This document shows, piece after piece, positions 6,724 to 24,301 of a stretch of 48,220 bases of DNA (its first letter is position 1; every line of letters begins with the position of its first letter). Below the pieces are notes generated by a model that searched no databases, had not been told where the DNA came from, and saw only the letters and a list, made by a program, of their open reading frames with translations. The stretch lies in the NCBI GenBank assembly GCA_016875475.1, contig VGRB01000001.1:1-48220 (forward strand), read 5' to 3'. The position numbers and the translations under genes were made by a program. The stretch is from Deltaproteobacteria bacterium. GTDB lineage: Bacteria; Myxococcota_A; UBA9042; DTJE01.

Positions 6724-6734
6724 GGAGGTGCGTG

Positions 6735-8476: not shown

Positions 8477-8495
8477 GAAGTCGTCTCCGCATCCC

Positions 8496-8522
8496 GGCGT
8501 TCCCCCTTTCCACGGGGACGCC
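8496..8522. terminator. stem-loop between the convergent operons
   Basis: GGCGT(T)CCCC (8496-8505) pairs with GGGGACGCC (8514-8522): 9 bp with one bulge. It lies between the stop at 8476 (+) and the stop at 8525 (-). There is no clear U-tract. Confidence 0.35.
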
Positions 8523-8524
8523 GC

Positions 8525-8746
8525 CTACGCCCGCAGCACCTCGATGACCACGAGGCCGTCATCCCGGCGCTCGGCCGCGGTCACGCGGTGGCCGGCCGCC
8601 TTCAGCGACGACATGACCGCCTTCAACGCGTCCGCCCGGAGCGTGACCCGCAGCGTCCCCCCGGCCGCGAGCAGGTCCATGGCCCTGCCGACCTTCACGT
8701 GCGTCAGCGGGCAGGCGTCCCCGGTGATGTCCAGCTCCTGCGTCAT
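8525..8746 (-). CDS. TusA/SirA-like sulfur-carrier protein
   Basis: 73-aa terminal part of ORF 8525..9313: MTQELDITGDACPLTHVKVGRAMDLL...TLRV. This is the TusA fold with its conserved Cys. The start overlaps the upstream stop (ATGA). Confidence 0.85.
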   Translation of the reverse strand: MTQELDITGDACPLTHVKVGRAMDLLAAGGTLRVTLRADALKAVMSSLKAAGHRVTAAERRDDGLVVIEVLRA

Positions 8747-9606
8747 GGCGCCTCCCCCACGTGCGCGACCAGGGCCTCGACCCCGGTGCGCGCGACGGTG
8801 TCCGCGAACCGCTCGCCCGGGCGACCCCGCGCCCGGAAGAAATCGAGCACCGCGGCCGCGACGCGAACCACCTCGGCCGGGTCGCGCAGGACCGGCAGGA
8901 TCGGCACCCCGAGCCGCGGGATCCGGCCGAACTTGCCGCCCGCGAAGAGCCGGTACCCGCGCACGGCGACGGCCATGGTGCCGGTCGGGCACGCGTCGGT
9001 GCAGTCGCCGCACCCGATGCACGCGGACGCGTCGAGGTGCACCGCGACGCCCTCCTCGACGCGGATCGCCCCGGTGGGGCACGCGGCCGCGCAAAGCCCG
9101 CAGTACGTGCAGTCGTCGCGCCGCCATCCGGGCTCGACCCACCCCTTGATGCCGAGGTCGTTCTCCTCGACCTTGATGCAGTTGTTGGCGCAGCCGGTCA
9201 CGGCGAACTTGAACTTGTGCGGAACGGGCCTGCCGTAGAAGGCGCAGTCGAGGTCCCGGGCCAGGGCCGGCGCGTCGATCAAGCCGCTCGGGCAGACGGT
9301 GCACCCCTGGCACGCGGTGATCGTGCGGACCGTGGGGCCGCAGGTGCCCACGCCGACGCCGGAGGCGGCCAGGAACTCCTTCACCGCCGAGAGCGACTCG
9401 AGCGGGACGAACGGGATCTCCACGCCCTGCCGGGTGGTGAGGTGGACCTCGCCGCGACCGAACCGGGAGGCGGCCTCGTGGATGGCCGCGAGCTGCCCGG
9501 CCGAGACCTGCCCCCCGACCACGTGGAGGCGGACCGAGAACAGCCCGGCCTCGCGTTGGCGCATCATGCCGCCCTTCTTCAACTCCCTCCAGTCGGTCTC
9601 GCCCAT
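8743..9606 (-). CDS. small sulfite/nitrite-reductase-like sirohaem-[4Fe-4S] protein with ferredoxin insert
   Basis: ATG at 9606 with GGAGG 6 nt upstream; the track's 9621 start is a TTG. CX5C (CQGCTVC) and CX3C (CANNC) sirohaem-cluster motifs. Two ferredoxin motifs (CTYCGLCAAACP, CIGCGDCTDACP). 287 aa. Confidence 0.85.
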   Translation of the reverse strand: MGETDWRELKKGGMMRQREAGLFSVRLHVVGGQVSAGQLAAIHEAASRFGRGEVHLTTRQGVEIPFVPLESLSAVKEFLAASGVGVGTCGPTVRTITACQGCTVCPSGLIDAPALARDLDCAFYGRPVPHKFKFAVTGCANNCIKVEENDLGIKGWVEPGWRRDDCTYCGLCAAACPTGAIRVEEGVAVHLDASACIGCGDCTDACPTGTMAVAVRGYRLFAGGKFGRIPRLGVPILPVLRDPAEVVRVAAAVLDFFRARGRPGERFADTVARTGVEALVAHVGEAP

Positions 9607-9607
9607 C

Positions 9608-10570
9608 TCAGACCTCCACAACGCCGTCCGTGCCGACGAAATCCGTGAAGCAGGACGCGTACTTGAGCGCGCTGTCCGGCGAGATGCAGACCGCCACGGC
9701 GCCCTTCGGAAGCCCGGCGTTCAGCGCTGCCCAGACCACCGCGCCCGTGGACGGTCCGACCAGCAGCGCGTCCTCGCGGGCGAGCCGGATCGCGGTCCCG
9801 TACGCGTCGGCGTCGGACACGCGTACGGTCCGGTCGATCAGCGACTCGTCGAGGATCTCGGGCTTCCGGCTCTCCTGGAAGTTCTTGAGCCCCGAGATCC
9901 GGTGCCCCTTCTCCGGCTCGATCGCCAACACGCTCACGGCCGGGTTCCGCTCCTTCAGGTACCGCGCGACCCCCGTGATCGTCCCGCAGGTCCCGTACCC
10001 GGCGAGGAAGTGCGTCACGCGCCCGGCCGTCTGGTCCCAGATCTCCGGCCCGGTGGTCTCGTAGTGGGCGCGCACGTTGTCCGGGTTCGAATACTGGTCC
10101 GGCATCACGTAGCGGTCGCGGGTGGACTCGCTGTTCACGAACGACCGCGCGAGCGCGATCGCGCCGTCCTTCGGGTGGTCGATCGGGCACAGGTCGTCCG
10201 GCGTCTTCCAGACCTCCGCGCCGAGCACGCGCAGCAGGGTCAGCTTCTCGGGCGGCGCACCCGAGGGGAGGGTGACCGAGCACGGCACGCGGCGCAGGTT
10301 CGCCATGGCGGCGAGCGCGATCCCGGTGTTGCCGGACGTCGGCTCGATCAGGCCACGGCCCGCGAGGCGCCCGTCGCGCTCGAGGCCGTCGAGCAGGGCG
10401 CGGGCCGTCCGGTCCTTGACCGACCCGAACGGGTTCATCCACTCGAGCTTGGCCCAGACCTCCGGGCCACCTTCCGGGACGCAGCGCCGCACCCGGACAA
10501 GCGGCGTCGGGTTCTCGCGCGAACCGATCAACTCTGTCACGTCGTCGAAGACCCGCCCGGTCGCATCCAT
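9608..10570 (-). CDS. PLP-dependent cysteine synthase family protein (CysK/CysM-like)
   Basis: Starts at MDATGRVF (cat at 10568-10570, GGAGGGG upstream). PLP-lysine motif NPFGSVKDR, then TSGNTG and a glycine loop GTCGTITG. 320 aa. Confidence 0.9.
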   Translation of the reverse strand: MDATGRVFDDVTELIGSRENPTPLVRVRRCVPEGGPEVWAKLEWMNPFGSVKDRTARALLDGLERDGRLAGRGLIEPTSGNTGIALAAMANLRRVPCSVTLPSGAPPEKLTLLRVLGAEVWKTPDDLCPIDHPKDGAIALARSFVNSESTRDRYVMPDQYSNPDNVRAHYETTGPEIWDQTAGRVTHFLAGYGTCGTITGVARYLKERNPAVSVLAIEPEKGHRISGLKNFQESRKPEILDESLIDRTVRVSDADAYGTAIRLAREDALLVGPSTGAVVWAALNAGLPKGAVAVCISPDSALKYASCFTDFVGTDGVVEV

Positions 10571-11793
10571 GATCCGTCCCCTCCGGCGCACTGCCCCACG
10601 AAAACGACGGCCGGCGACCGGACCCGCGCCTCGCGCGCGAGCGCCGGGAGGTCGGCGAGCCGGCCCCGGACCACCCGCTGCGACGGGCGGCTGGCGTTCT
10701 CCACGATCGCGCACGGCGTCGCCGTGTCGAAGCCGGCCGCGAGCAGGCCCGCCACGCACTCGCCGAGGCGTCCGACCCCCATGTAGATCGCGACGGTCCC
10801 GTCCCTCGGCAGCCGGGACCAGTCCACCGCCGGGGCGGCGCCGCCCGCGCCGTGACCGGTCACGAACGTGACCGACGACGCGCGGTCGCGGTCCGTCAGC
10901 GGGATGCCCGCGGCGGCGGCGCAGGCGCTCGCGGCGGTGACGCCGGGGACCACCTCGAACGGTACCCCGGCCGCGGTGAGGCGCGACGCTTCCTCCGCCC
11001 CCCGCGAGAACAGGAGGGGATCGCCGCATTTCAGCCGGACGACCGACCGTCCCTCCCGCGCGTGCCGGACCATGGACGCGTCGATCGCCCGCTGGCGCCC
11101 GGCCGCGCCGTGGCCGGGCGTGCCCGGTGGCGCCCGGTGGCACTCCCGCACGGCCCGGTGCGCGAGCGCGAGGACCGGCTCCGGGACCAGGCCGTCGTGG
11201 ATCACCACGTCGGCGGTGCGGAGCACGCCGAGGGCGCGGACCGTGAGCAGGTCCGGGTCGCCGGGTCCCGCGCCGACGAGGTAGACCGTGCCGGGACGCG
11301 CCTCGCGGTCGGGTCGTCGCCGGCCGCGCTCGACGCGGACCGCGAGTTCGGCGCGGTGGTCGTCGAGGTACTCCCTGACCGCCCGCACCGCACCCGGGTG
11401 CTCCCCGCCCGACGACACCGCGACGGTGAGTCCGTCCGCCCGCACCACGCCAGGCACGTGGAACGTGCTTGCCTCCGGGTCGTCCGCGACGTTGACCGGC
11501 AGGCCCGCGCGCCTCGCTTCGGCCGCGGCGGCCCGGTTCACGGCCGCGTCGGACGTCGCGACGAGCACGATCGTGGCACCGGCGAGGTGCCCGGGCCGGA
11601 ATGGCTCGCGGACCGCGGCGATCCGCCCCGCGTCCGCCTCCCGCTCGAGCGCGTCGCAGAACGAGGGGGCCACGACGGTGACGCGGCCGCCGGCCTCCAG
11701 GAGGGCCCGGACGCGGCGCTCGGCCACCCGCCCCGCCCCGACGACGACGGCGTTCACCTCCCGTCCGACGAGCGTGATGGGGAACGCGGACAC
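10537..11793 (-). CDS. cysG: sirohaem synthase (precorrin-2 dehydrogenase/ferrochelatase fused to uroporphyrinogen-III C-methyltransferase)
   Basis: N-terminal Rossmann VVGAGRVAERRVRALLEAGGRVTVVAP (CysG N-domain). C-terminal SUMT motifs VYLVGAGPGDPDLLT and LKCGDPLLF. Confidence 0.9.
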   Translation of the reverse strand: MSAFPITLVGREVNAVVVGAGRVAERRVRALLEAGGRVTVVAPSFCDALEREADAGRIAAVREPFRPGHLAGATIVLVATSDAAVNRAAAAEARRAGLPVNVADDPEASTFHVPGVVRADGLTVAVSSGGEHPGAVRAVREYLDDHRAELAVRVERGRRRPDREARPGTVYLVGAGPGDPDLLTVRALGVLRTADVVIHDGLVPEPVLALAHRAVRECHRAPPGTPGHGAAGRQRAIDASMVRHAREGRSVVRLKCGDPLLFSRGAEEASRLTAAGVPFEVVPGVTAASACAAAAGIPLTDRDRASSVTFVTGHGAGGAAPAVDWSRLPRDGTVAIYMGVGRLGECVAGLLAAGFDTATPCAIVENASRPSQRVVRGRLADLPALAREARVRSPAVVFVGQCAGGDGSWMRPGGSSTT

Positions 11794-11819
11794 CCGGGTC
11801 CTCCCTCCAACCAGGACGG

Positions 11820-11849
11820 ATTCTGCCCGATCGAACCCGGGCGTGTCAA
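11820..11849 (-). promoter_or_regulatory. sigma70-like promoter of the cysG operon
   Basis: The minus strand reads TTGACA (11844-11849), an 18-nt spacer, then CAGAAT (11820-11825). GGAGGGAG (11801-11808) and the start codon at 11793 follow. Confidence 0.45.
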
Positions 11850-11920
11850 GCTAATCATTGAGTAAACAAATAAACATCTGCCACTAGGGCCCCGAGCTAA
11901 CAGGGCACAACAAAAACACC

Positions 11921-11950
11921 TTGACAGCATGACTCCGAAATAGCGATAAT
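11921..11950 (+). promoter_or_regulatory. sigma70-like promoter facing the cytochrome operon
   Basis: TTGACA (11921-11926), an 18-nt spacer, then GATAAT (11945-11950). It lies inside the only markedly AT-rich stretch of the region. Confidence 0.5.
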
Positions 11951-12032
11951 AAACATGACCATTGCAGTAAGCAATGGGTGGGGGTGGCGGTTGGCACCGA
12001 TCGACGGGGTCGGGACGAGCCGGTGGCCGGGG

Positions 12033-12263
12033 ATGCTCGAGCTGCCCCGCGCGGAGTTCGAGTCCCTCGGGCCGTCGGAGGGGGAGCCCGTCGTCCTCCG
12101 CGTCCGCGACGCGCGCACGTACCCGGCGGACGGGCAGGACTGCCGGATTCGAGGCCGCGAGAGGGAGCGATGGGCAGCCAGGCCTGTACGGATGTCGCCA
12201 GCGGAGTCGACTATTGATCAGCCGTCGCGACACGTCCCGAAGGATGTTCATTTGTTCCGGTGA
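12033..12263 (+). CDS. possible small protein in the long leader (hypothetical)
   Basis: The frame of ORF 11955..12263 has almost exclusively G/C third positions between about 12000 and 12135 (MLELPRAEFESLGPSEGEPVVLRVRDARTYPADGQDC). That bias is lost afterwards. No recognisable family. It could instead be a structured leader. Confidence 0.3.
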   Translation: MLELPRAEFESLGPSEGEPVVLRVRDARTYPADGQDCRIRGRERERWAARPVRMSPAESTIDQPSRHVPKDVHLFR

Positions 12264-12404
12264 GTTCGGCACGCCGGGGGCGGGGCACGGCCGTTGCACT
12301 CTCCCCTCGCGGCGGGCCTGGAGCCGGGCGGACCGTGCCGCCCCGGTCTTGCGGCAGGGGCGCCCGGAAGGTTCGAGGAGCTTGTGAGGAACGGGAGGGA
12401 CGAG

Positions 12405-13193
12405 ATGAACGGATCGGGTGTTCACGGACGCGCGGCCGCGCTCGTCGCGGCGACCTGGTGCGCGCTGCTCGCAGGCTGCGGCGCGCACCACGAGGAGGGC
12501 CAACAGATGGTCCTCGAGTACGACCCCGCCGTGCGCTTCCCGGCCGCGTTCACGAGCGCGTCGGGGGGGAAGGTGACGATCTCCACGATGACGATGGCGG
12601 GGGGGACGCACCGCGACACGGCCGCGCTGTTCGAGGCGGCCGCGGACGGCTGGGGGTACCGCGCGTGGGCCCGGGCGGGCGACGCGTGGACCGACCTCGG
12701 GCCGTTCGTTCCGGGCACGGACCTCGTGGCGGACGCGGCCGCGGGCGCCGCGCTGCAGGTGACCATCGAGGCGGCGGGCGCATCGCCGGCGGCGCCGTCG
12801 GCCGAGGTCGTGCTGTCCGGGACCGCCGGGGCGGGCCTCGCGTTCGGGACGCTCGACGCGCTCGCGTTCACGCCCGCCGGGGTCGAGGTGAGGGCGGGGG
12901 GCACGTCGGTCGACCTCGCCTGCCACGACCTGCCCGCGCTCCCCGCGGGGTTCCACTACGCGTTCTGGCTGACCGAGGTCGACGACGCGGGCACCGCCAA
13001 GGGCGCGCCCTTGGCGCTCGGCAAGGTCTCCCTGGCCGACGGGGGGCTCGCGGCGAGCGGCGTCGCCCTGCCGGAGCACCACGTCTTCGACCTGTCGATC
13101 GAGGCGGACCACGGCGCCGCGACGCGCTCGCCGCTGGTCTGCTTCCGGGGCACCCACGACGCGACCGCTCCCGGCGGCGGTCACGGCCACTAG
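12405..13193 (+). CDS. lipoprotein of unknown function, His/Gly-rich C-terminus
   Basis: ATG 12405 preceded by GGGAGGGA. Signal and lipobox (ALLAGC). Two similar halves. Ends ...APGGGHGH. First gene of the cytochrome operon. Confidence 0.75.
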   Translation: MNGSGVHGRAAALVAATWCALLAGCGAHHEEGQQMVLEYDPAVRFPAAFTSASGGKVTISTMTMAGGTHRDTAALFEAAADGWGYRAWARAGDAWTDLGPFVPGTDLVADAAAGAALQVTIEAAGASPAAPSAEVVLSGTAGAGLAFGTLDALAFTPAGVEVRAGGTSVDLACHDLPALPAGFHYAFWLTEVDDAGTAKGAPLALGKVSLADGGLAASGVALPEHHVFDLSIEADHGAATRSPLVCFRGTHDATAPGGGHGH

Positions 13194-13208
13194 GGGGGAG
13201 GGGCGGCC

Positions 13209-14756
13209 ATGTCAGGATCGAATCCCTGGTTCCGCAACCGTGCCCTGGCGATCCTGGCCGGGGCCGTCGCGGTCGTGACCGCGCCGCGGGAGGTCTCCGC
13301 GATCCCCGCGTTCGCGCGGAAGTACCGCACGAGCTGCGCCACCTGCCACGTCGCGTTCCCGAAGCTCAACGCGTTCGGGGAGGCATACCGGATCGCGGGC
13401 TACCACGTCCCGGGGGGGGACGAGCAGTTCGTGAAGGACGAGCCCGTCGAGATGGGCAGCGAGGCGTGGAAGCGCGTCTGGCCGAAGGGGATCTGGCCTT
13501 CGAGCATCCCGTGGATCCCCCCGGTGGCCGTGCGCGCGACCGGGGGCTTCGTCTCGGACCTGACCGGCCTCGGGGAGTCCTCGAACCCGGACGGGAAGCA
13601 CTCGTTCGTGTTCCCGGCCGCGCTGAACCTGTACGCGGCCGGCACGCTCGCCGAGGACGTCTCGCTCTGGTCCGGCGTCCACCTGTTCCGGAACGGGGAG
13701 TGGGGCGAGCTCGGGAAGCTGCACCTGTCGTTCTCGAACCTCCTCGACCGGTGGGTGCCGAGGCAGCTCTTCAACCTGCGGATCGGGCTGTTCGTGCCTG
13801 GGTCGGTCGCGTTCGACCACCACAGGAACGTCACGTTCGGCACGCCGATCTTCGCGACCGCGAACGCGATCGACGGCGTGCCGGGGGGCATCGGCCACGC
13901 GCACGGGTCCGGCGGAGCCGCCGGCGGGCACGGTGCGCACGGCGGAGGCGCGGCCGCCGGCGCGGTGTCGTACTCCGGCGCGTTCGCGCTCGGCTCGGCG
14001 CAGGTCGGCGCGGAGCTGTACGGGCTGATCCTGCCGCGCTGGGAGTACCTGGTCGGCGCGGTCAACGGGAACGGCGCCGCGATCGACGACAACAACGCCA
14101 AGGACGTCTATGGCCGCATGCGGGTGAAGATCGGCGGCATGGCGTTCGACGGCACCGACCCGGACGCGGGCGAGGCGCCGGCGGAAGCCGAGCCGCGCCT
14201 GCGGGACACGCAGGGGTGGGTGGACGACTCGGTCATCCTCGGAGCCTCCGGGTACTGGGGGCGGCACCGCACGTCGTCCACGACGACCACCGAGCACAAG
14301 CTTCTGGATTCGCTGGGGAACCTCGTCGTCCGCGCGGACGGGAAGGCGGCGACCGTGACCGAGGAGGCCACGACGTCGTGGAGCACCGACGTGATCCGGG
14401 CGGGAGGTGACATCCAGGCGACCTGGCGCGACTTCGAGCTGCTCGGCATGGCGGTATGGGGCCGCGACTCGAACCCTCGCGGCGACGGCGAGCCCGTGTC
14501 GTCGCTCGTCACGATGGGCCAGCTCGACTGGGTCACGCCGTGGCACTTCCTGATCTCCACGGTCCGCTACGAATCCGCGCTGTTCTTCGGCCACGCGGGT
14601 CACGCGCCGGACGATCGGCACCAGCTCGTCGCGGGCCTGACCGCGCTCGTGCGCGCGAACATCCGGATCCAGATCGAGGGGCAGGTCGATCTCGTCCGCG
14701 ACCCCGCACGGGAGGTGAGGGACCATGTGGCACTCGTCATCGATGCGGGCTTCTGA
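13209..14756 (+). CDS. outer-membrane beta-barrel protein with a single N-terminal c-haem motif (Cyc2-like fused cytochrome-porin candidate)
   Basis: Signal peptide, then IPAFARKYRTSCATCHVAFPKLNAFGEAYRIAGY with the protein's only CxxCH. About 470 aa of alternating-polarity sequence. His/Gly loop GHAHGSGGAAGGHGAHGGG. C-terminal ...VIDAGF, an OMP-type terminal Phe. Confidence 0.8.
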   Translation: MSGSNPWFRNRALAILAGAVAVVTAPREVSAIPAFARKYRTSCATCHVAFPKLNAFGEAYRIAGYHVPGGDEQFVKDEPVEMGSEAWKRVWPKGIWPSSIPWIPPVAVRATGGFVSDLTGLGESSNPDGKHSFVFPAALNLYAAGTLAEDVSLWSGVHLFRNGEWGELGKLHLSFSNLLDRWVPRQLFNLRIGLFVPGSVAFDHHRNVTFGTPIFATANAIDGVPGGIGHAHGSGGAAGGHGAHGGGAAAGAVSYSGAFALGSAQVGAELYGLILPRWEYLVGAVNGNGAAIDDNNAKDVYGRMRVKIGGMAFDGTDPDAGEAPAEAEPRLRDTQGWVDDSVILGASGYWGRHRTSSTTTTEHKLLDSLGNLVVRADGKAATVTEEATTSWSTDVIRAGGDIQATWRDFELLGMAVWGRDSNPRGDGEPVSSLVTMGQLDWVTPWHFLISTVRYESALFFGHAGHAPDDRHQLVAGLTALVRANIRIQIEGQVDLVRDPAREVRDHVALVIDAGF

Positions 14757-15363
14757 CGGTCTCGTGGCGGTCCTGGCCGCGGCGGTGGCGGTCGGACTCG
14801 CGGGGGAGGCCGCGGCGCAGGGCTCGATCCGCGGCGCGGTCAAGGCGACGGGGGTGCGCCGGCCCGACAACGTGGTCGTCTACCTGAAGTCCGTGCCGGG
14901 CAGCCACCCGCCGCCGTCGGCCCCCGCGATCATGGACCAGAAGGACTTCGTGTTCCTGCCGCACGTGCTGCCGATCGTGCGCGGGACGAAGGTGCGCTTC
15001 CTGAACAGCGAGCCCAAGGCGCAGCACAACGTGTTCTCGCCGGACGCGGTCGCGGACAAGGTGAACCTCGGCACCTACCCCCCCGGACAGTCGCGCGACC
15101 ACGTGTTCAACAAGACCTGCGGCGGCAAGGGTACCTGCGTCGCGGCGCTGCTGTGCAACGTCCATCCGGAGATGAGCGCGTACATCGTGATCCTGGAGAA
15201 CCCGTATTTCGCGGTCACGGACAAGGGCGGCGCCTTCGAGATCCGGAACGTCCCCCCCGGGACGTACGAGCTGGTCGCCTGGCACGAGAAGCTGAAGGAA
15301 GCTTCCACGAGCGTGACCGTGGGCGCGGGCGAGACCCAGGTGAGCCTGAGCCTGTCGCGCTGA
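14725..15363 (+). CDS. periplasmic cupredoxin (type-1 copper, amicyanin-like loop) with CarboxypepD_reg-like C-terminal domain
   Basis: GGAGG lies 9 nt upstream of ATG 14725. Signal peptide present. Cu ligand pattern H (AQHNVFS) ... C-x2-H-x2-M (LCNVHPEM). The tail FEIRNVPPGTYELVAWHEKL is typical of the Ig-like regulatory domain. Confidence 0.85.
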   Translation: MWHSSSMRASDGLVAVLAAAVAVGLAGEAAAQGSIRGAVKATGVRRPDNVVVYLKSVPGSHPPPSAPAIMDQKDFVFLPHVLPIVRGTKVRFLNSEPKAQHNVFSPDAVADKVNLGTYPPGQSRDHVFNKTCGGKGTCVAALLCNVHPEMSAYIVILENPYFAVTDKGGAFEIRNVPPGTYELVAWHEKLKEASTSVTVGAGETQVSLSLSR

Positions 15364-15381
15364 CGCGCAAGGGGACGCGAG

Positions 15382-15912
15382 ATGGCATCGGACGCGGACG
15401 CACGCATGGACCGGCGCGAGTTCGGGGCGCGGGCGCTCCGGGCGGGGTGGTGGACGCTCGCCGCGACGGGGGCCGCGGCAACGTGGGCGACCGTGCGGTT
15501 CTTCGTCCCGCGCGCGACGTACGAGCCCCCCGCGCGGTTCGTCGCGGGCCGGCCCGCGGACTACGCGGTCGGCGAGGTCAGCGTAACGCACCTCGCCGCG
15601 CAGCAGGTCTGGATCGTTCGCGACGAGCAGGGGATCTACGCGCTCGTGGCGCAGTGTACCCACCTCGGGTGCCGGCCGAACTGGCTCGCCGAGGAGCAGC
15701 GGTTCAAGTGCCCGTGCCACGGGAGCAACTTCGACCGGTCGGGGAAGGTGATCGCCGGGCCCGCGCCGAAGCCGCTCCGCAGGGCCGCGATATCGCTCCT
15801 CCGCGACGGCCGGATCCGCGTGGACCGCTCGGAGCAGGCGGACCTGGCCGAGGCGCTGCACCGGCCCGGGTTCCTGCTGACGGCGGAGGCGATCGCGCAG
15901 GCGGGGGCGTGA
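15382..15912 (+). CDS. Rieske [2Fe-2S] subunit of a cytochrome bc-type complex
   Basis: TAT-like N-terminus ([11 protein letters not shown]). Rieske boxes CTHLGC and CPCHGS. Confidence 0.93.
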
Positions 15913-15913
15913 G

Positions 15914-16660
15914 ATGGGATTCCGGCAGGGCCACGTCTGGCGCTCGATCTTCCGGGTGGGCCTGCCCTCGGACCGGCGCGGACGGCTGCGGGTGGTGCTG
16001 GCGAACTTCTTCCTGCACCTCCACCCGACGAAGGTGCCGAGGTCCGGGATCCGGCTGACCTACACGTTCTGCCTCGGCGGGCTGTCCGCGTTCCTGTTCG
16101 TGCTGCTGACGGTCACCGGCGTGTTCCTGATGTTCTACTACGTGCCCGACACCGGGCGCGCCTACGCGGACATGAAGGACATCGGGTACGTGGTGCCGTT
16201 CGGCCGGGTCATGCGGGCCGCGCACCGCTGGGCCGCGCACGGCATGGTCGTGACCGTGATCCTGCACATGACGCGCGTGTTCCTGACCGGGTCGTACAAG
16301 CCGCCGCGCGAGTTCAACTGGGTGGTCGGGGTCACGCTGCTCGTGCTGACGCTGCTGCTGTCGTTCACCGGCTACCTGCTGCCGTGGGACCAGCTCGCGT
16401 ACTGGGCGATCACGGTCGGCACGAACATGGCTGCCGCGGCGCCGGTGGTCGGCCACGAGGGGCCGTTCGGGCACCCCGCGGGCGCGCGCGTGGACTCGGA
16501 CCTGCGGTACCTGCTCCTCGGCGGAACCACGGTCGGCCAGAACGCGCTGCTGCGGTTCTACGTCCTGCACTGCGTCGCCCTGCCGCTGGCCGCGGTGGTG
16601 CTGATGGGGGTGCACTTCTGGCGGGTGAGGAAGGACGGCGGGATCTCGCGGCCGTTGTGA
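15914..16660 (+). CDS. cytochrome b (b6-like N-terminal half)
   Basis: 248 aa with 4 helices. Conserved RxxHRWxAxxMV...HMxRVF and [15 protein letters not shown] motifs. The start is 1 nt after the Rieske stop. Confidence 0.93.
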
Positions 16661-16683
16661 GGGAAGCGGTGGAGGAACGCGCG

Positions 16684-16767
16684 GGAACGGGGGCGGGGGC
16701 AGGGGCAGGGCCGGGAGCGGGTACGGGCACGGGGATCGGGACGGGGATGGGGACGGGGACGGGGGAG
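16684..16767 (+). repeat. 14 tandem GGN-NNN hexanucleotide units, in frame with the downstream gene
   Basis: gga acg ggg gcg ggg gca ggg gca ggg ccg gga gcg ggt acg ggc acg ggg atc ggg acg ggg atg ggg acg ggg acg ggg gag. Translates as GTGAGAGAGPGAGTGTGIGTGMGTGTGE. Confidence 0.9.
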
Positions 16768-16770
16768 GTC

Positions 16771-17445
16771 ATGGTCGAGACGTGGCCTCACCTCGTCTTC
16801 ATCGAACTGCTGGCCATGCTGATATGCACGGTCGCGATCGGGGCGTTCTCGCTCGTGGTCGAGGCGCCGCTCGAGTCGATCGCGAACCCCGGCTACACGC
16901 CGCCGATCGCCAAGGCGCCGTGGTACTTCGTCGGGCTCCAGGAGCTGCTCGTCTGGTTCGACCCGTGGATCGCGGGCGTGATCGTGCCGGGGGTCATCAT
17001 CCTCGGGCTGATGGCGGTCCCGTACCTCGACCGCGAGCCGGACCACGTGGGGCTGTGGTCGCCGCGCCGGCGGCCGGTCGCGTGGTCGATCTTCATCTTC
17101 GGCCTCGCCCTGTGGTTCGGGCTGATCGCGGTCGGCACCTGGGACCGCGGCCCGCACTGGGCGTGGTACTGGCCATGGGAGTCCTGGGACGTCGAGAAGC
17201 CGCCGGTCGCCACCACCACGGACCTGCCGCCGTGGGTGGGGATCCCGGCGGTCCTCGGGTACGTGGCCGGCGGCATCGCGCTGCCCGCGGTCATCCGGCC
17301 CGGGTTCCGGCGCCGGCTCGGCTGGCCGAGGTACCTGCTGGTGACGGCGCTTCTGCTCGGGATGCTGGCCGTGCCGTTGAAGATCGCGATCTGCCTCGGG
17401 CTCGACGTGCACTACGTGCTCGTGACCCCGTGGTTCAACCTGTAG
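16771..17445 (+). CDS. cytochrome b C-terminal half / subunit-IV-like protein
   Basis: MVETWPHLVFIELL...AKAPWYFVGLQELL (PEWYF-type motif), membrane helices. An in-frame GTG at 16669 preceded by GAGGGA may be the true start. That would add the Gly-Thr/Ala repeat as an N-terminal tail. Confidence 0.85.
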   Translation: MVETWPHLVFIELLAMLICTVAIGAFSLVVEAPLESIANPGYTPPIAKAPWYFVGLQELLVWFDPWIAGVIVPGVIILGLMAVPYLDREPDHVGLWSPRRRPVAWSIFIFGLALWFGLIAVGTWDRGPHWAWYWPWESWDVEKPPVATTTDLPPWVGIPAVLGYVAGGIALPAVIRPGFRRRLGWPRYLLVTALLLGMLAVPLKIAICLGLDVHYVLVTPWFNL

Positions 17446-17486
17446 GGCGGTCCGGCCGGAAGCCGGCCCCCGGGGGGGATCCGGAC

Positions 17487-19562
17487 GTGAGCGGTGACGA
17501 TCGCACCGGAGATGCGGGCACTTCCGTCGATCCGGTCGCGCCGGTGTCCGTCGGCCGGCGCGTGCTCTTCCTGGTCTCGTCCGCCGCGCTCGCCGCGGTC
17601 ACCGGCGCGACCGTGCTGGACGAGGTCCGGCCCGCGTGGTCGGGCCACTGGCTCGACGCGCAGGAGCGGCTGGCCGTCGCCGGGGTCGAGGACGCGGAAG
17701 GGGCGGTGCCGGTCCGCGTGCCGCAGCTCCATGTGCCGGCGCTCGGCGTGGTCGACCGCTGCGGCGCCTGCCACGCGGGCACGGACCGCCCGGAGCTGGC
17801 CGGCGCTCCCGCTCCGCTCGCGACGCACCCGGGCCCGATGCTCGAGCTGCACGACCCGGAGAAGGTCGGCTGCACGCCGTGCCACGACGGCCAGGGGCGG
17901 GCGACGCGGCTCCCGGACGCGCACGGATCGGTCGCCCACTGGGAATCCCCGCTGCTGGCGGGCCGGCTTGTCCAGGCCGGGTGCGGCCGGTGCCACGACC
18001 GGGCGACCGTCGCCCGCGCGCCCGACCTCCGGCGAGGCGTCGCGCTGATGGATCGCCTCGCCTGCTTCGGCTGCCACGAGATGCCGGGGGCGGGCGTCCG
18101 CGGCCGGGTGGGTCCGGAACTGACGTACGCCGCGGACCGGGCCTCGCCCGCCTGGCTGCTCGCGTGGCTCCGCCGCCCCGCGGACCTGCTCGCGACGCCG
18201 CGCATGGCCGACTTCGGCTTCTCCGAGCGCGACGCCGCCGACATCGTCGCGTACCTGCTCTCGTTCAGGGGCCGCGCGGGCCTGCCCGAGGCGGGCGGCG
18301 CGCTCGAGTCCGCGTCGGACGCGGCGCTCGACCGCATGTACGAGGCGGGGGGGAAGACCTGGCGGACCGCCCGGTGCGTGAGCTGCCACGCGATTGCGGG
18401 CACGGGCGGGACGCTCGGGCCGGACCACGGCCGCATCGGCGAGAAGCTGTCGGTCGAGGCGATCGCGGCGTGGATCGCGGACCCGGAGCGCTTCCTGCCG
18501 GGCACGCGCATGCCGCGGTTCCGGCTTCCGGAGGGCGAACGGCTCGCGCTCGCGTACCACATGAGCGAGGAGATGAAGGACCCGGCCGCGGCGGAGCGGC
18601 TGGCCGAGGTCGCGTCGCGCGCGGACTCGCTCCTCTCCTCGGCCGACGCCGCGCGCGGGCGCACGCTCGTCCACTCGCTCGGCTGCCTCGGGTGCCACGC
18701 GGTCGCGGGCGTCCCGGACGCGCGCCCCGTCGGGCCCGACCTGACGCGCTTCGGCGAGAAGGAGGTCGGCCGGCTGCCGTTCAAGGCGGGGTGGGACGGG
18801 CCGCGGACCCGCGAGGCGTGGACGCGGGCGAAGCTCGAATCGCCGCGCTCCGGAGGCGAGACCCTGATCATGCCGACTTCCCCGATCGCGAAGCAGGACC
18901 TCGACGCGCTGCTCGTCGCGGTGCTGTCCCTGACCGCGCCCGCGCCGGCGTCCGCGCAGGCCGACCCTCCCCGCCCGGCCGGGCCCGCGTACCCCCCCGG
19001 GCCCGCCGGTGCGCTCGTCCGGGACCTGAAGTGCCTGACCTGCCACGCGCTCGGCGGGAGCGGCGGCACGCTCGCGCCCGACCTGACCGCGGAGGGGAGC
19101 CGCGTGCAGCCGCGCTGGCTGTTCGACTTCCTGCGGGAGCCGTACGAGATCCGGCCGCTCCTGGTCGAGCGGATGCCGCGCTTCTTCCTTCCGGACGCGG
19201 AGGCGGAACTTCTGACGACGTGGCTCGGGGTCGCGTACGCTCGCGACGGCCTGCCCGAGGTCCCGGCCGATCCGGCCGAGGCGGCGCGCGGCGAGACCCT
19301 GTTCGAGGACCTGAGGTGCCGCGGCTGCCACATCCTGGGCGAGCGCGGCGGCGCGGTCGGGCCGAACCTGTCCGACACGGGCAGGCGGCTCGATCCGCGG
19401 TGGACCGCGTGGCAGCTCACGGACCCGGCCCGTGCCGGCGCGGTTGAGCCGCGCATCGTCGGGTCGGCGGAGGACGCCCGCTCGCTGGCCGCGTTCCTGG
19501 CGACCCGCCGGGTCGAGACGGCGGCCCCTCCCGGAGGGCCGGAGGCTGGAGGCGCGCCATGA
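17487..19562 (+). CDS. membrane-anchored octahaem c-type cytochrome
   Basis: Eight CxxCH motifs: CGACH, CTPCH, CGRCH, CFGCH, CVSCH, CLGCH, CLTCH, CRGCH. N-terminal TM segment (RRVLFLVSSAALAAVTGATVL). The GTG start at 17487 is the first plausible in-frame start, so the start is uncertain. Confidence 0.85.
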   Translation: MSGDDRTGDAGTSVDPVAPVSVGRRVLFLVSSAALAAVTGATVLDEVRPAWSGHWLDAQERLAVAGVEDAEGAVPVRVPQLHVPALGVVDRCGACHAGTDRPELAGAPAPLATHPGPMLELHDPEKVGCTPCHDGQGRATRLPDAHGSVAHWESPLLAGRLVQAGCGRCHDRATVARAPDLRRGVALMDRLACFGCHEMPGAGVRGRVGPELTYAADRASPAWLLAWLRRPADLLATPRMADFGFSERDAADIVAYLLSFRGRAGLPEAGGALESASDAALDRMYEAGGKTWRTARCVSCHAIAGTGGTLGPDHGRIGEKLSVEAIAAWIADPERFLPGTRMPRFRLPEGERLALAYHMSEEMKDPAAAERLAEVASRADSLLSSADAARGRTLVHSLGCLGCHAVAGVPDARPVGPDLTRFGEKEVGRLPFKAGWDGPRTREAWTRAKLESPRSGGETLIMPTSPIAKQDLDALLVAVLSLTAPAPASAQADPPRPAGPAYPPGPAGALVRDLKCLTCHALGGSGGTLAPDLTAEGSRVQPRWLFDFLREPYEIRPLLVERMPRFFLPDAEAELLTTWLGVAYARDGLPEVPADPAEAARGETLFEDLRCRGCHILGERGGAVGPNLSDTGRRLDPRWTAWQLTDPARAGAVEPRIVGSAEDARSLAAFLATRRVETAAPPGGPEAGGAP

Positions 19563-20014
19563 AGGCCTTCGCGATCGCCGTGGCGGCGCTCCTGGCGACG
19601 GGGTGCGGCGGGGAGGAGCCCCCCCGGCCGGCGGCCGCTTCCACGACCGGGTCCGCGGCCGGGGCGATCGGTGCGGCCGAGGGCGCCGTCCTGTACGGCC
19701 GGTGGTGCGCCGCGTGCCACGGCGCGACCGGGCACGGCGACGGCATCACCGCGTCGCGTCTCGACCCCGCGCCCGCGGACCTCGCGTCCGGGGCGGCACG
19801 GGGCCTGACGGACGCCGGGATCGACGCGGTCGTCGCCGGCGGGGCCAGGGGGACCGGGAGGGCGGGCGTGATGCCGGCGTTCGGCAACACGCTTTCGCCC
19901 TGGAAGCGGCGCGACCTCGTCACGCACGTCCGGACGCTCCAGCGTGCCGCGGCAGCTGCAGCCGCAGCCGCCGCAGCCGCAGCCGCCCCCGAGGGCCCGG
20001 TCGCGCCGGACTGA
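19559..20014 (+). CDS. monohaem class-I c-type cytochrome lipoprotein with poly-Ala tail
   Basis: ATGA overlap with the upstream stop. Lipobox LLATGC. CAACH plus distal VMPAF. 14 consecutive Ala codons (19946-19987) near the C-terminus. Confidence 0.85.
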   Translation: MKAFAIAVAALLATGCGGEEPPRPAAASTTGSAAGAIGAAEGAVLYGRWCAACHGATGHGDGITASRLDPAPADLASGAARGLTDAGIDAVVAGGARGTGRAGVMPAFGNTLSPWKRRDLVTHVRTLQRAAAAAAAAAAAAAAPEGPVAPD

Positions 20015-20196
20015 CGTCCCGGGGCGTCGTGTCCGTCGGGACGAAGGCCGAATCGGTGAATCCGCCGTAGCCCCGTCCGCCTCGGGTATTCCCGTCCCCG
20101 GCGGTCGGGCCCTGGAACCGCAGGAACGCGAAAGGTACGATCGGGGCCGGTCGGGAGGGCCGGACGGACCCTGACCCCGGCCGCCGGAGGGGTCGG

Positions 20197-22464
20197 TTGT
20201 CGCCGCTCGACCTGCTGATCGCGATGCCCGTTGCGGGTCTGATGGCCGCTGCCGGGCTCGCGACCGTGAACCAACTCGCGGGGCCGCCCGGTGGGGACCG
20301 CCCGGACGGGGCAGCGCCGGTGGCCCCGGATGCCGGCCTCCGCACCCTGCTCGCGTCGCTCGCCTGGGGCTTCGGCGTGGTGCCGCTGTTCACGCTGTGG
20401 GTCAACCTGTTCACCGGGGTCCGGGTCACGCTCCCGCTGCTGGTCGCGGTCGCCGCGGCGAACCTGGTCGCGGCCGCCGTCGCGGCGGCGATCCGGGCGC
20501 GAGGGGCGCCGCCGCTCGCTCGCATGCTGCCGGTGACCCTGCTCGCGCGCGCACTCGGCGGACGGCGCGCGGTCCTGGTCGCGGGCGGGCTCGTCGCCGC
20601 CGTCTACCTGCTCGCATTCGACGCCCGCCACCCGCTCGACGACTCGTGCATCTACAACGCGGCGTTCCTCGCGACCGGGCAGTCGGTCTCCGGGCAGCCG
20701 GTCGAGGACGTGGACCTGCTCCGGACCAACCCTGACGACGCGCGCCTCGGCAACTCCGCGCTGCTCGCGGCCGCGCTCGTGCTGTTCGGACCGCTCGGGT
20801 TCCGGCTCGCTTTCGCGCTGTGCGCGTTCGCGATCGCGCTCGGCGGCTACGTCGTCGGCCGCGACGCGGGCGGTCGCGGATGGGGCTGGTTCGGCCTCGT
20901 CTTCCTGCCGCTGAACTCGTACGTGCTGACGATCGCGCTCCCGGACGAGAACCTGTTCGCGCTCGCGATCGGCACGGCGCTGCTGCCGCTGATGCTCGGC
21001 CCCCGGGAGGACCGGGACGACGGCGCGGGGCGGGCCGCGGGTCGCTGGATCGTGCTCGGCGCGCTGTTCGGCCTGCTGCTCTGCGTCCGGCACGCGATGA
21101 TCCTGTCGTTCGCGGCGCCGCTGCTCGTGGCGTGGCGCGAGCGCCGCCGCGCCGCGGCCGTCGGGGCGTTCCTGGTCGCGGTCGCGGTCGTCACCCTGCC
21201 GGAGCACCTGCACCACCTGTACGCGCTCGGGTCGGTCCTCAAGTTCGAGAGCAACCCGCAGTTCCCCCCGCTGCCGTACGAACTGCTCGGCGTCCGGTTC
21301 CACTGGCAGGGGTTCGTGAACTGGCCGCTGCACGACCAGGTGGTGCGCACGCCCCACAACCCGTTCCCGACCTTCGTCGCGTGGCCGCTCGCCCTGGCCC
21401 ACCACTTCGGGCTGATCCTGTTCGCGCTGCTCCACGCGGGGTTCGTCCGCGTCTGGCTGCGGTCGCGGGAGCGCGCCGCGTTCTGGGCGCTCTGGGCGGT
21501 CCCGGTCGTCGCCGCGATCGCGGTGCAGGAGGCGTGGGACCAGGCGAACAAGATGGGCGTCATCCTGATGGTCGCGACCGCCTTCGTGCCCTGGATCGCG
21601 GCGGGTGGCGAGGCGGTGCGGCGGAGGCCGGTCGCCGCCGGCGGCGCGGTCGCGGCCCTGGTCCTCGCGTCGTGGGCGGGGACGGCGGGGATCCGCGACT
21701 GGCGCGTGCCCGCTGACGAGCGGTACTACTGCCTCCCCGGCGCGTGGACCGAGCGCGCCGACCTCGTGGACCGCGCGGCGGCGGAGGCGACCGACGCGGG
21801 GCTGCTCCCGCGACCGCCCGTCGCGCCGCACGTCTCGGGACGCTTCCTCGCGGGGAGCGCGGTCTCGCTCCGGGAGGCGCTCCGGTCACCGTCGTCCGCG
21901 GCCGTCGAGTGGCCGCTCGGCTTCTTCGGCCACGAGGTCCCGCCGCCGGGCGAGCCGGTCACCCTGGTCGTCGACCTGTCGCGCGACCCGTTCGGCGCGC
22001 CCTTCGTCACGACGGACCGCGGCCCGGCCGACCTCGACCTGACCGCGCCCGGGGCCGGCGCGATCGTCGAGGGCCTGTCCGCCCCGTGGTCGCGCGTGCC
22101 GATGACGGTCGTCGCGCGCCGGTCCGCGACGGCGACCGGGGTGATGGTGGACTTCGACCAGCCCCCCGCCGAAGGCTGCCCGCCGCCCCCGGACCCGGGT
22201 CGGACCCGTGATGCCTTCCTGCTCGACAACCGGTGCGAGGTCCTGTCGTGGCTGGTCGGCGACACGGCGTCGGCCTGCCCGCTGCGCGGCGCCGCGCCGG
22301 TCCGGCGACCGGACCCCGTGCTCCGGCTGAGGGTCCCGTCCGGGGTGGTCAACGTGGCCCTCGTCGTGAACTGGCGGGGCGAGAACTACCGGCTGTGGGC
22401 GGGGATCGCGGACGCGTCGGGACTTGCCCCGACCGCGCAGGGCGTCCGGTTCTGGCACAACTGA
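20197..22464 (+). CDS. polytopic membrane protein, possibly GT-C-fold (ArnT/PMT-like) glycosyltransferase, with soluble C-terminal domain
   Basis: 755-aa ORF (TTG start; GGAGGGG upstream). About 12 hydrophobic segments in the first 480 aa. Acidic first loop (HPLDDSC). Function is not established. Confidence 0.7.
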
Positions 22465-22546
22465 TCGCCGCGTCCCGAATCCGGATCCGCTTTGTCCTCT
22501 TAGCGCCGAGGCGGCGCCGCGGCTACAATCCCCGTCGGAGGTGCGG

Positions 22547-24301
22547 ATGACGTCTGCTCGCGGCGCGGTCCTCGTTGCTGCCGTCCTCTTCCTCGCGTGC
22601 GGGGGCGGCGGCGGCGACCCAGGCTACCACGGGCCGTTCCGCGAGGTCATGGTCGGCAAGGACCTGGGCGTGGCCTACGACACGGGCAAGGACAAGCCCG
22701 CGGCCGGCGACGCGGGCAAGGACGCGGCCCCGGACGCGGACGGCGCGGATCCGCAGGACGCCGAGGACGCGCCGGTCCCGTCCGACGCGACGGGGCCGGA
22801 CGTCACGGCCGACGCGTCGGAGGCGGACGCGTGGCCGCTCGGCGACGACGACGGCGACGGCATCCCGAACGGGGTCGAGGGAGAGGTCGACACCGACGGG
22901 GACGGGACGCCCGACTTCCTGGACCAGGACTCGGACGCGGACGGCATCCCGGACAAGGTCGAGGGGGTCTCGGACCCGGACTACGACGGCAAGCCGTCGT
23001 ACAAGGACCCGGACTCGGACGACGACGGGCTCGACGACGCCGCGGAGGCGCTCGGCAAGGACGGCGTCGCGGGCACGGGCGACGAGACGTCGACCACGAA
23101 GAAGGACACGGACGACGACGGGTTCATCGACCTCGTGGAGGTCGCGTACGGGTCGGACCCGCTCGACCCGGCCTCGGTGGTGCCCCCCGACGTGTTCTAC
23201 CTCGTGCTGCCGTACGACGGCGAGTCGCAGAAACGCCATCTCGACTTCTCGACGGACATCACCCGGGCGGACGTGCTGATCCTCGTGGACCTGTCCGGGT
23301 CGATGGGGGGGGAGCACGCGAACCTGAAGAAGGGCATCAAGCAGACGGTGATCGGGGGGATCAAGGCGTCCGTCCCGGAGGTCGCGTTCGGGCTCGTGAA
23401 GTTCGGCACGCTCGAGGACGACGTGTACGCGGTCGCCCAGGCGATCACGACCGACGCGGACGCGGTCAAGGCCGCGGTGGACGGGATCTCGGAGTGCGGC
23501 GGCAGCGAGGAGGCGCACTCGGAGGTGCTCTACCAGGCCGCGGCGGGGACGGGGTTCGACGGCACGCTCTGCACCGAGTGGGGGCCGTTCGGTCTGTTCT
23601 GCATCGACGAGTCGAGCCCGCACATCCCCCCGGCGAGCTGTCCCGCCGGCAAGGTCGGGGGCGCGTGCTTCCGGCCGGACGCGCTGCCGATCTTCCTGAT
23701 GATGACCGACGAGCCGTTCCAGGACGGCGACTGGGACTGGGAGTCCGGCAACCCCCACGACAAGGGGGACGCGATCGCCGCGATGAAGGCGATCGGCGCG
23801 AAGTTCGTCGGCGTGGACTCGTCCGAGGGCGGGAACGTGCTCGACAACTTCAAGGACGTGTCCAAGGGCACGGGATCGCTGGACAAGCAGGGCAATCCCT
23901 TCAACTACACGATCGCGGCCGACGGGACCGGGCTGTCCCAGCAGGTCGTGGACGCGGTCGTCGCGCTGACCGAGAACAGCGTGCTCGACGACGTCACGAC
24001 CCAGCGCGAGTCGGTCGCGAACCCGGAGATGATCGACACGACCCAGTTCGTCAAGTCGGTGACGCCGGTCTCGGCCAGTCCGGCCGGGGGGGTCGAGTCC
24101 ATGGATGCGACCTCGTTCCACAAGGTCGACCCCGGCACGACCGTCACGTTCGACGTGGAGTTCAGGAACGACTTCTACGAGCCGACCACCGTCAAGGTCA
24201 TGCTGTTCCAGGCCGTGATCCACGTGGTGACCGGGAACACCCTGTTGAGCAGCAGGCCCGTCTACATCATCGTCCCGGGGAACCGGGTGCACTGGCAGTA
24301 G
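22547..24301 (+). CDS. lipoprotein with thrombospondin type-3 Ca-binding repeats and a von Willebrand A domain
   Basis: ATG 22547 preceded by GGAGGTG. Lipobox FLAC-GGG. Repeated DxDxDGxxDxxD units ([52 protein letters not shown]). MIDAS motif DLSGSM. Confidence 0.85.

Follow-up and report, generated by a model that had tools for sequence, protein, structure and literature searches.

Cyc2 is the main marker for calling iron oxidation in metagenomes, and surveys report cyc2 in Acidobacteriota, Ignavibacteriota, Zixibacteria and other lineages without pathway context. Which proteins might connect a divergent Cyc2 to the quinone pool, and which way would electrons run between them? The question is raised by a 48,220-bp contig (about 74% GC) of a metagenome-assembled genome (MAG) labelled 'Deltaproteobacteria bacterium', which is called the window here. 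The contig comes from a lake and also occurs in the runs SRR16108671/2 and in JGI 3300020603. Eight genes on its forward strand (g1 to g8, positions 12405 to 20014) encode a lipoprotein, a Cyc2-type haem-porin, a copper protein, a Rieske/cytochrome b complex and two c-type cytochromes, and a preliminary description of the sequence had proposed that they form a conduit between the quinone pool and the cell surface. The gene arrangement is beyond chance: the same order is found in 26 of the 80 closest loci of other species, in nine phyla. The cluster type is widespread and apparently undescribed, and the arrangement looks like transferable wiring between dissolved extracellular iron and energy metabolism.

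Proteins encoded by the cluster

The second gene, g2 (13209..14756, + strand; locus tag FJ087_00080), encodes a protein of 515 residues that, from its motif and a predicted barrel, is a Cyc2-type fused monohaem cytochrome-porin of the outer membrane. Keffer et al. (2021) define Cyc2 by a signal peptide, a single CXXCH, a length of more than 365 residues and a porin part resembling OprO and OprP. They also describe a motif N-terminal to CXXCH, AXPXFAR[Q/K][T/Y], which they call unique to Cyc2, and a PXL four residues after the haem site. In g2 a predicted signal peptide (MSGSNPWFRNRALAILAGAVAVVTAPREVSA; a helix at residues 6 to 23 in the model) stands ahead of a conserved mature N-terminus, AIPAFARKY-RTS-CATCH-VAF-PKL, with five residues between R37 and C43. 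CATCH, at residue 43, is the single CXXCH near the N-terminus, and one motif per protein was found in 80 of 81 homologues. Ten positions (A31, P33, F35, R37, Y39, C43, C46, H47, P51, L53) do not vary among 37 aligned sequences, and these proteins end, like outer-membrane barrels, in an aromatic residue.

The AlphaFold2 model of g2 (pLDDT 77.4, pTM 0.77) has a barrel from about residue 106, which Foldseek matched to 16-strand porins, namely OprP (2o4v, with the top TMq of 0.47) and OprO (4rjw and 4rjx). No Pfam or NCBIfam model matched g2, even at E ≤ 10, so it is assigned to Cyc2 by the published motif together with its predicted fold; judged by its sequence, g2 has every feature that the published definition names. 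The Cyc2-like barrel with one N-terminal CATCH that had been proposed for 13209 to 14756 was thus borne out on both counts on which it might have failed, as the Cyc2 motif is present and an OprP/OprO-like barrel is predicted. From the taxa of their hosts, g2 and its relatives probably belong to the divergent 'Cluster 3' of Cyc2. The family is large: a g2 profile found 4,900 representatives at 50% identity among 1.84 billion proteins.

Directly downstream, g3 (14725..15363, + strand; alternative start at 14743) encodes a predicted periplasmic, amicyanin-like type-1 copper protein of 212 residues with a C-terminal CarboxypepD_reg-like β-sandwich. Pfam recognized the C-terminal domain only, as did a search of the PDB with the single sequence; the cupredoxin part surfaced with a family profile. 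This profile, built from 34 homologues, matched the cupredoxin domain of 9cck (7e-10), the blue copper protein 5fc9 and amicyanins (about 1e-7), and the best Foldseek matches of the AlphaFold2 model (pLDDT 91.7) were the cupredoxin domain of NirK, amicyanin and plastocyanin. The predicted copper ligands H95, C138, H141 and M144 are invariant in the homologue alignment and have the amicyanin spacing C-x2-H-x2-M (HNVF, CNVHPEM). Profile matches, predicted fold and the invariant H/C/H/M set all agree with the earlier assignment of g3 as an amicyanin-like protein. More than 4,000 homologues of g3 exist, and their JGI annotation is plastocyanin.

The first ligand His is replaced by Asn in 4 of 34 homologues from related loci, which read LNNIF for LHNVF (L002, 3527-4171; L004, 6781-7407; L009, 11508-12194; L013, 6066-6662). 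Nitrospinae and deltaproteobacterial MAGs are the source of these loci, which have no Rieske/cytochrome b genes. The copper site of these four proteins may be altered or lost.

The next three genes encode the core of a quinone-linked complex. The product of g4 (15382..15912, + strand) is a Rieske [2Fe-2S] protein of 176 residues (PF00355 at 6.9e-15) with a motif for TAT export, RREFG, and cluster boxes CTHLGC and CPCHGSNF of the CxHxGC/CxCH type. Its nearest solved relatives are 9rk3 (1.4e-28, 102.9 bits) and then 9rk4, which are Kustd1480 and Kuste4569 of Kuenenia stuttgartiensis, with measured midpoint potentials (Em) of +335 and +303 mV, respectively. It has an S-F box and falls in the 'Mid+' class of Kao and Hunte. 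The product of g5 (15914..16660, + strand; 248 residues, PF00033 at 1.6e-41) is a four-helix cytochrome b that aligns over its full length with cytochrome b6 (7r0w_I, 2e-42) and keeps all four haem-ligand His residues of both pairs. It scored 281 bits against the NCBIfam model for ExtP, for which the cut-off is 290. A subunit IV-like membrane protein of 224 residues is encoded by g6 (16771..17445, + strand), with a match to PF00032 and weak matches to ExtQ and to subunit IV of b6f. Its Qo motif is APWY (KAPWYF), which was also found in 22 of 23 related loci.

A Cys in g5 (TFCLGG) aligns with the haem-cn Cys of b6 (YCLGG). It is kept in the window and in the closest relative, L001, and is G, W, A, Y or F in the 21 others; as the Cys is kept in 2 of 23 homologues, haem cn was not counted as a trait of the complex.

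The last two genes encode cytochromes. The product of g7 (17487..19562, + strand) is a protein of 691 residues predicted to be anchored by a transmembrane segment at residues 20 to 45, with eight CXXCH motifs (residues 92, 129, 166, 193, 297, 400, 516 and 611) in a c7/ExtS-like N-terminal part followed by class-I cytochrome c domains. Eight haem motifs occur in 22 of its 28 homologues. Judged by its sequence, g7 is the protein that stands in for cytochrome f/c1. The product of g8 (19559..20014, + strand; 151 residues, PF13442 and PF00034) is a monohaem class-I cytochrome c with CAACH at residue 50. An N-terminal LLATGC makes it a probable lipoprotein, and its homologues come after the octahaem gene in 20 loci. 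It ends in a poly-Ala tail, where a GCC/GCA repeat (19946-19991) encodes a run of 14 Ala near the C-terminus.

The motif counts of one, eight and one in g2, g7 and g8 reproduce the 'one plus nine more' c-haems of the preliminary description. Domain matches, alignments and motif counts also agree with the TAT Rieske protein, the b6-like and subunit IV-like pair, the 8-haem cytochrome and the 1-haem lipoprotein cytochrome that it had read from the translations, so that every component call that could be tested, from the barrel to subunit IV, held.

Its eight co-directional genes with tiny gaps or overlaps were likewise recovered, with the same ORFs, coordinates and junctions. Adjacent genes are separated by 15 nt (g1/g2, 13193/13209), 18 nt (g3/g4, 15363/15382), 1 nt (g4/g5, 15912/15914) and 41 nt (g6/g7, 17445/17487, with GTG as the g7 start codon). 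The start of g8 at 19559 overlaps the end of g7 at 19562 by 4 nt, and that of g3 at 14725 overlaps the end of g2 at 14756 by 32 nt, or by 14 nt if g3 starts at the ATG at 14743. The g5/g6 junction, which was missing from the earlier list, is 110 nt long, from the end of g5 at 16660 to the best g6 start, an ATG at 16771 after GGAGG. GC content at third codon positions (GC3) is 0.91 to 0.98 in g1 to g8, which fits genuine genes in a contig of 74% GC.

The g5-g6 gap is filled by a tandem repeat, (CGGGGA)x13.8 (16682..16764, + strand), which is G-rich on the coding strand and lies directly 5' of the g6 ribosome-binding site. It is in frame with g6, and a start at the ATG at 16747 would add a Gly/Thr-rich extension.

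The first gene, g1 (12405..13193, + strand), encodes a predicted lipoprotein of 262 residues (lipobox LAGC, residues 22-25). It scored 27.9 bits against RskA_C, the extracytoplasmic C-terminal domain of the anti-sigma-K factor RskA, under the cut-off of 29.4. A g1 homologue precedes the barrel gene only in the closest relative (L001, 9157-9870).

Conservation of the neighbourhood

A scan of one genome per GTDB species gave at least 579 loci encoding relatives of the barrel. Neighbourhood counts refer to the best 80 of these, which were read by tblastn with the window proteins and by all-against-all clustering of ORFs. The cupredoxin gene adjoins the barrel gene in 77 of the 80, and the exceptions are mostly truncated contigs. 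The order barrel, cupredoxin, (NAD(P)/FAD protein), Rieske, b6, subunit IV, octahaem, monohaem was found in the 26 loci mentioned above, from Myxococcota, Acidobacteriota, Planctomycetota, Bacteroidota, Ignavibacteriota, Gemmatimonadota, Calditrichota, Marinimicrobia and Desulfobacterota. Such a neighbourhood, with the copper protein almost always adjoining and the quinone-linked complex in a third, offers a testable wiring diagram for the divergent branch of Cyc2.

The optional member of this order is a protein of 620 residues (Fer4_20, Pyr_redox_2 and two [4Fe-4S] motifs), encoded between the cupredoxin and Rieske genes in 17 of the 26 Rieske loci and absent from the window. It resembles GltD and dihydropyrimidine dehydrogenase (DPD), and also the NAD(P) oxidoreductase subunit of the Rieske/cytochrome b complexes of anammox bacteria. 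It was seen in L027 (2607-4475) and in 18 other loci (for example L003, L012, L039, L042, L061 and L075).

What follows the cupredoxin gene was counted in the 45 loci with at least 7 kb of downstream sequence. The Rieske/cytochrome b block is present in 17 of them and a multihaem cytochrome alone in 3; an alternative set occurs in 9, a dihaem cytochrome in 5, and none of these sets in 12. Three proteins make up the alternative set: a small cupredoxin resembling COX2, a Fer4_5 membrane protein (polytopic, NapH-/CcoG-like) and a CuA-like cupredoxin that carries a fused cytochrome c domain. The set replaces Rieske/cytochrome b in some 9 to 12 loci of Omnitrophota, Planctomycetota and Bacteroidales (L044, 12496-14504; L034, 14623-15573). 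In L010, L011 and L018, from Zixibacteria, and in L080, the barrel and cupredoxin genes are accompanied by a g7-like multihaem cytochrome and no Rieske/cytochrome b genes. The Zixibacteria cytochromes have six CXXCH motifs; L080 encodes two such cytochromes, which have eight and six motifs.

Could the cluster then be two independent units that happen to lie side by side, an ordinary complex III of the kind found in Nitrospina and Kuenenia next to a Cyc2-like/cupredoxin module that feeds or drains a general pool of periplasmic carriers? Each half does occur by itself. The Rieske-b6-subunit IV-octahaem operon is found without Cyc2 in Nitrospina, Kuenenia and Methylomirabilis, the barrel-cupredoxin pair is without Rieske/cytochrome b in 28 of the 45 loci with sufficient flank, and L047 has its barrel gene on one strand and its Rieske block on the other. 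Against this, order and strand are kept in about 25 loci of nine phyla while barrel identity drops to about 30%, which is hard to explain without selection for linkage. The junctions are operon-like, no promoter- or terminator-like site was found between g3 and g4, and in the Rieske loci either the Rieske gene or the NAD(P)/FAD gene comes directly after the cupredoxin gene. We therefore consider it quite unlikely that the two halves are independent.

In the 80 loci, conserved neighbouring genes encode a histidine kinase and a sigma54-dependent regulator, together with the NAD(P)/FAD iron-sulfur protein and additional cytochromes and cupredoxins. ORF clustering revealed no oxidase, no reductase and no enzyme for a soluble substrate among these neighbours. 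A soluble-substrate enzyme as the true partner of the cluster, which would have shown itself as a constant neighbour acting on nitrite, hydroxylamine or sulfite, was rejected on this basis, since no such enzyme is conserved. The absence of a terminal oxidase, noted earlier for the cluster itself, extends to the related loci: none is encoded among the cluster genes and none is conserved around the others.

The same neighbours bear on a further explanation, that the haem-porin and copper protein oxidise or reduce iron or copper as it crosses the outer membrane, in the service of uptake or detoxification, and that the respiratory complex just supplies or accepts electrons. The porin part does resemble the ion-selective channels OprP and OprO, two-component regulation is typical of stress and nutrient responses, and some related loci encode a CcoG-like Fer4_5 membrane protein, the CcoG family being one that includes a cupric reductase. 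Beside the barrel-cupredoxin pair, however, the 80 loci share no gene for a transporter, a chaperone, a siderophore or efflux, and ten c-haems and a quinone-linked complex would be a heavy outlay for assimilation. As the known Cyc2 proteins are, in addition, respiratory iron oxidases, a role in metal handling seems very unlikely.

Direction of electron flow

Type-1 copper sites with a Met axial ligand have Em values of roughly +250 to +400 mV. The haem of Cyc2PV-1 has an Em of +208 mV, and all functionally verified Cyc2 proteins are Fe(II) oxidases (Keffer et al., 2021). Together with the Rieske relatives of g4, at more than +300 mV, these values indicate that the periplasmic chain encoded by the cluster would be of high potential. 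The quinone of such organisms is probably menaquinone, at about -70 mV.

Our preferred reading, which we hold tentatively and at somewhat less than an even chance, is that the cluster encodes one electron chain linking dissolved Fe(II), or a similar one-electron donor, to menaquinone, with the Rieske/cytochrome b complex running in reverse. The Cyc2-type g2 would take an electron from the donor at the outer membrane and the copper protein g3 would carry it through the periplasm. The monohaem lipoprotein g8 and the membrane-anchored octahaem g7 would relay it, and g7 would hand it to the high-potential Rieske centre of g4. The b6/subunit IV core (g5 and g6, of the APWY type) would then reverse the Q cycle at the expense of the proton-motive force (pmf) and reduce menaquinone. 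The cluster would thus be the 'uphill' branch of lithotrophic iron oxidation, and the 'downhill' sink, an oxidase or the enzymes of denitrification, would be encoded elsewhere. Donor, transfer partners and direction in this scheme are taken from the families to which the proteins belong.

Inward flow is favoured by the function of the Cyc2 family, the high-potential chain and the features of the APWY clade taken together. Kao and Hunte (2014) described split cytochromes b with APWY as a separate, phylogenetically patchy clade and linked it to reverse operation, citing in this context a complex of Geobacter metallireducens that is encoded with p-cresol methylhydroxylase; they also pointed out that the bc1 of Acidithiobacillus, which runs in reverse, has a Pro at this Qo position. 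The operon-like spacing, the adjacency of barrel and cupredoxin genes in 77 of the 80 loci and the lack of a conserved oxidase or soluble-substrate enzyme speak for a single chain as well.

Several observations weigh against inward flow. The Rieske/cytochrome b part is present in just 38% of the loci with sufficient flank (17 of 45), and about nine loci have instead the NapH-/CcoG-like ferredoxin and CuA-like set, which offers no obvious use of the pmf for uphill transfer. The relatives of g2 probably belong to Cluster 3, the largest and most divergent branch of Cyc2 and the one for which the Cyc2 authors regard function as most uncertain. Reverse operation of the APWY clade is itself a proposal only.

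Three other points count against inward flow and at the same time in favour of flow in the opposite direction: Rieske/cytochrome b complexes normally operate forwards, many of the host lineages are anaerobes or known iron reducers, and g5 is most like ExtP, from a Geobacter cluster, of a metal reducer, that unites a porin with a Rieske/cytochrome b core. In outward flow, the Rieske/cytochrome b complex would oxidise menaquinol, and the high-potential electron would pass along the octahaem cytochrome, the monohaem cytochrome, the cupredoxin and the Cyc2-like porin until it reached an oxidant dissolved outside the cell, for instance chelated Fe(III), Mn(III) or oxygen species. Where relatives have the NAD(P)/FAD subunit, NAD(P)+ could be reduced by the low-potential electron, in line with a proposal for the anammox complexes. 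The GltD/DPD-like protein of 17 of the 26 Rieske loci fits this idea, as it resembles a subunit whose quinol bifurcation needs a high-potential acceptor; it is, however, absent from the window. A Rieske centre at about +300 mV, a type-1 copper site and a Cyc2 haem at about +200 mV would reduce only acceptors above about +200 mV, which excludes ferric oxides at neutral pH. Moreover, no Cyc2 homologue has been shown to be a reductase, and the APWY Qo motif is associated with reverse operation. On balance we judge outward flow unlikely.

How does the proposed inward chain compare with known systems? Functionally closest are the rus (cyc2, cyc1, cox, rus) and petI (cycA, sdrA, petABC) operons of Acidithiobacillus ferrooxidans, which share with the window a Cyc2 cytochrome-porin, a type-1 copper protein, periplasmic c cytochromes and a Rieske/cytochrome b complex, there running in reverse. 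The acidophile A. ferrooxidans has two operons, with an aa3 oxidase in rus, whereas the window, from a freshwater MAG, has one cluster and no oxidase, and would combine the functions of rus and petI in a single sigma54-controlled unit. Cytochrome b is unsplit and accompanied by cytochrome c1 in A. ferrooxidans, in contrast to the split b6/subunit IV and octahaem cytochrome of the window, and rusticyanin takes the place of the amicyanin-like protein fused to a CarboxypepD_reg-like domain. With Cyc2PV-1 of Mariprofundus, Cyc2 of A. ferrooxidans and Cyt572 of Leptospirillum, members of a family of about 400 to 500 residues, g2 shares the signal peptide, the single CXXCH, both motifs and the OprO/OprP-like barrel. 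The near-obligate cupredoxin neighbour and the linkage to Rieske/cytochrome b have not been reported for the characterised members.

The extHIJKLMNOPQS cluster of Geobacter sulfurreducens, which is tied to selenite and tellurite reduction, also combines a phosphate-porin-like protein, c cytochromes, the Rieske protein ExtO, the b6-like ExtP, the membrane protein ExtQ and the cytochrome c lipoprotein ExtS in one cluster. Like the score on ExtP, those on ExtQ (36 bits, cut-off 150) and ExtS (83.6 bits, cut-off 100) stayed below their cut-offs. The Geobacter porin, ExtI, is haem-less, and g2 matches no ExtI-type model. The rhodanese ExtH, ExtI itself, the multihaem ExtKL, ExtM and ExtN are not encoded in 12405 to 20014, where there is also no counterpart of the 5-, 10- and 12-haem cytochromes; conversely, the Geobacter cluster has no cupredoxin.

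The complexes of Kuenenia stuttgartiensis (Kustd1480-1485 and Kuste4569-4574), Nitrospina gracilis and Methylomirabilis oxyfera resemble the window in having a b6-like cytochrome b and a subunit IV, with cytochrome f replaced by a hexa- or octahaem cytochrome. They have no outer-membrane partner, and no Cyc2-like or cupredoxin gene is reported to adjoin them. The Kustd1480-1485 complex has in common with the window a Kustd1480-like Rieske protein; its NAD(P) oxidoreductase subunit is not encoded in the window. The anammox complexes are located in the anammoxosome membrane, and for one of them no high-potential reaction has been proposed. The APWY clade of Kao and Hunte (2014), which includes the G. 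metallireducens complex, shares a split cytochrome b, APWY itself, a patchy distribution over phyla and a proposed reverse Q cycle from a high-potential donor. The G. metallireducens complex has as its donor a soluble flavocytochrome whose substrate is organic, whereas the window has an outer-membrane haem-porin and a copper protein. The cluster type connects three puzzles that had been separate, namely the APWY clade of cytochromes b, the ext cluster of Geobacter and the NAD(P)-linked anammox complexes.

These comparisons qualify two claims of the preliminary description. It knew of no account of the fused gene order; partial precedents exist in Geobacter ext and in the Rieske-b6-subunit IV-octahaem operons, and it is the link of such a core to Cyc2 and a cupredoxin that lacks one, as no description of the Cyc2-cupredoxin pair or of its Rieske/cytochrome b linkage was found by full-text searches outside the subscription-only literature. 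Of the proposed conduit between quinone pool and cell surface, the parts, their order and their conservation stand. A mineral as its substrate is disfavoured, monohaem Cyc2 being thought limited to dissolved Fe2+ (Keffer et al., 2021).

A bolder form of the inward scheme, which we regard as a doubtful possibility, is that the cluster is a self-contained uphill module spread by horizontal transfer, in which a Cluster-3-type Cyc2 passes electrons to a dedicated copper protein and on to a reverse-running, APWY-type b6. In the two-thirds of the Rieske loci with the NAD(P)/FAD subunit, extracellular iron would then be coupled to NAD(P) by one membrane supercomplex. If so, lithotrophic or mixotrophic iron oxidation would be far commoner than supposed, in Acidobacteriota, Planctomycetota, Bacteroidota, Myxococcota and others, and the module would point to the missing high-potential partner of the anammox-type complexes. 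If direction and substrate were confirmed, the range of lineages estimated to be able to gain energy or reducing power from dissolved iron would have to be revised.

Promoter candidates and flanking genes

The preliminary description placed the genes downstream of a sigma70-like promoter at 11921 to 11950. The consensus match is real: TTGACA-18-GATAAT (+ strand) agrees at 11 of 12 positions, and 2 sigma70-like matches were found against 0.1 expected. It is, however, unlikely to be the promoter of the operon. The site lies 455 nt 5' of the g1 ATG, and an ORF of 102 codons (11955..12263, + strand; GC3 0.81), ending at a terminator-like hairpin (12232-12247), intervenes. The ORF begins 5 nt past the sigma70-like site and matched no Pfam family; it may be a small leaderless gene or else belong to a long untranslated leader. 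An Rfam search of 11700 to 20300, which covers the 455-nt leader and the repeat region, gave no credible match to a riboswitch or other RNA.

A sigma54-type -24/-12 element, GGCACGgccgTTGCA (12284..12298, + strand), 106 nt 5' of g1, is a candidate operon promoter. It is the sole match to GGYAYN5TTGCW in the 48-kb window, where 0.14 are expected. Of 78 related loci, 14 have an element of this type in the 300 nt 5' of their barrel gene, where 1.9 would be expected. A histidine kinase gene is found directly upstream in 34 loci and an NtrC-type sigma54-dependent regulator in 28. The element was looked for and is absent in L001, where the upstream gene context is also different, so the promoter call rests on enrichment across the family and not on the nearest neighbour. 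From these sequence matches, sigma54 control appears the better promoter hypothesis for the candidate operon.

In these 28 to 34 loci the histidine kinase is PilS-like/PAS, and it and the NtrC-type response regulator are encoded on the same strand as the barrel gene (for example L034, 6241-8244; L045, 6258-7658). The pair is absent from the window.

Upstream of the cluster, the window has a sulfur-metabolism block (2541-11793). It encodes a molybdopterin oxidoreductase with 4Fe-4S and NrfD subunits (Psr/Phs-like), two Sulf_transp proteins (YeeE/YedE-like), TusA, a small NIR_SIR/ferredoxin protein, a PALP cysteine-synthase-like enzyme and a CysG-like sirohaem synthase. Its last four genes are on the minus strand, the last one being divergent from the cluster.

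Downstream, none of the genes from 20197 onwards is conserved beside the cluster in the other loci. The first of them, on the same strand as the cluster (20197-24301), encode a protein of 755 residues that matches no family and one of 625 residues that contains bacterial TSP3 repeats and matches VWA weakly. Farther downstream, at 30066-35891, 36614-39511 and 40735-45300, there are very large ORFs of about 970 to 1,940 residues.

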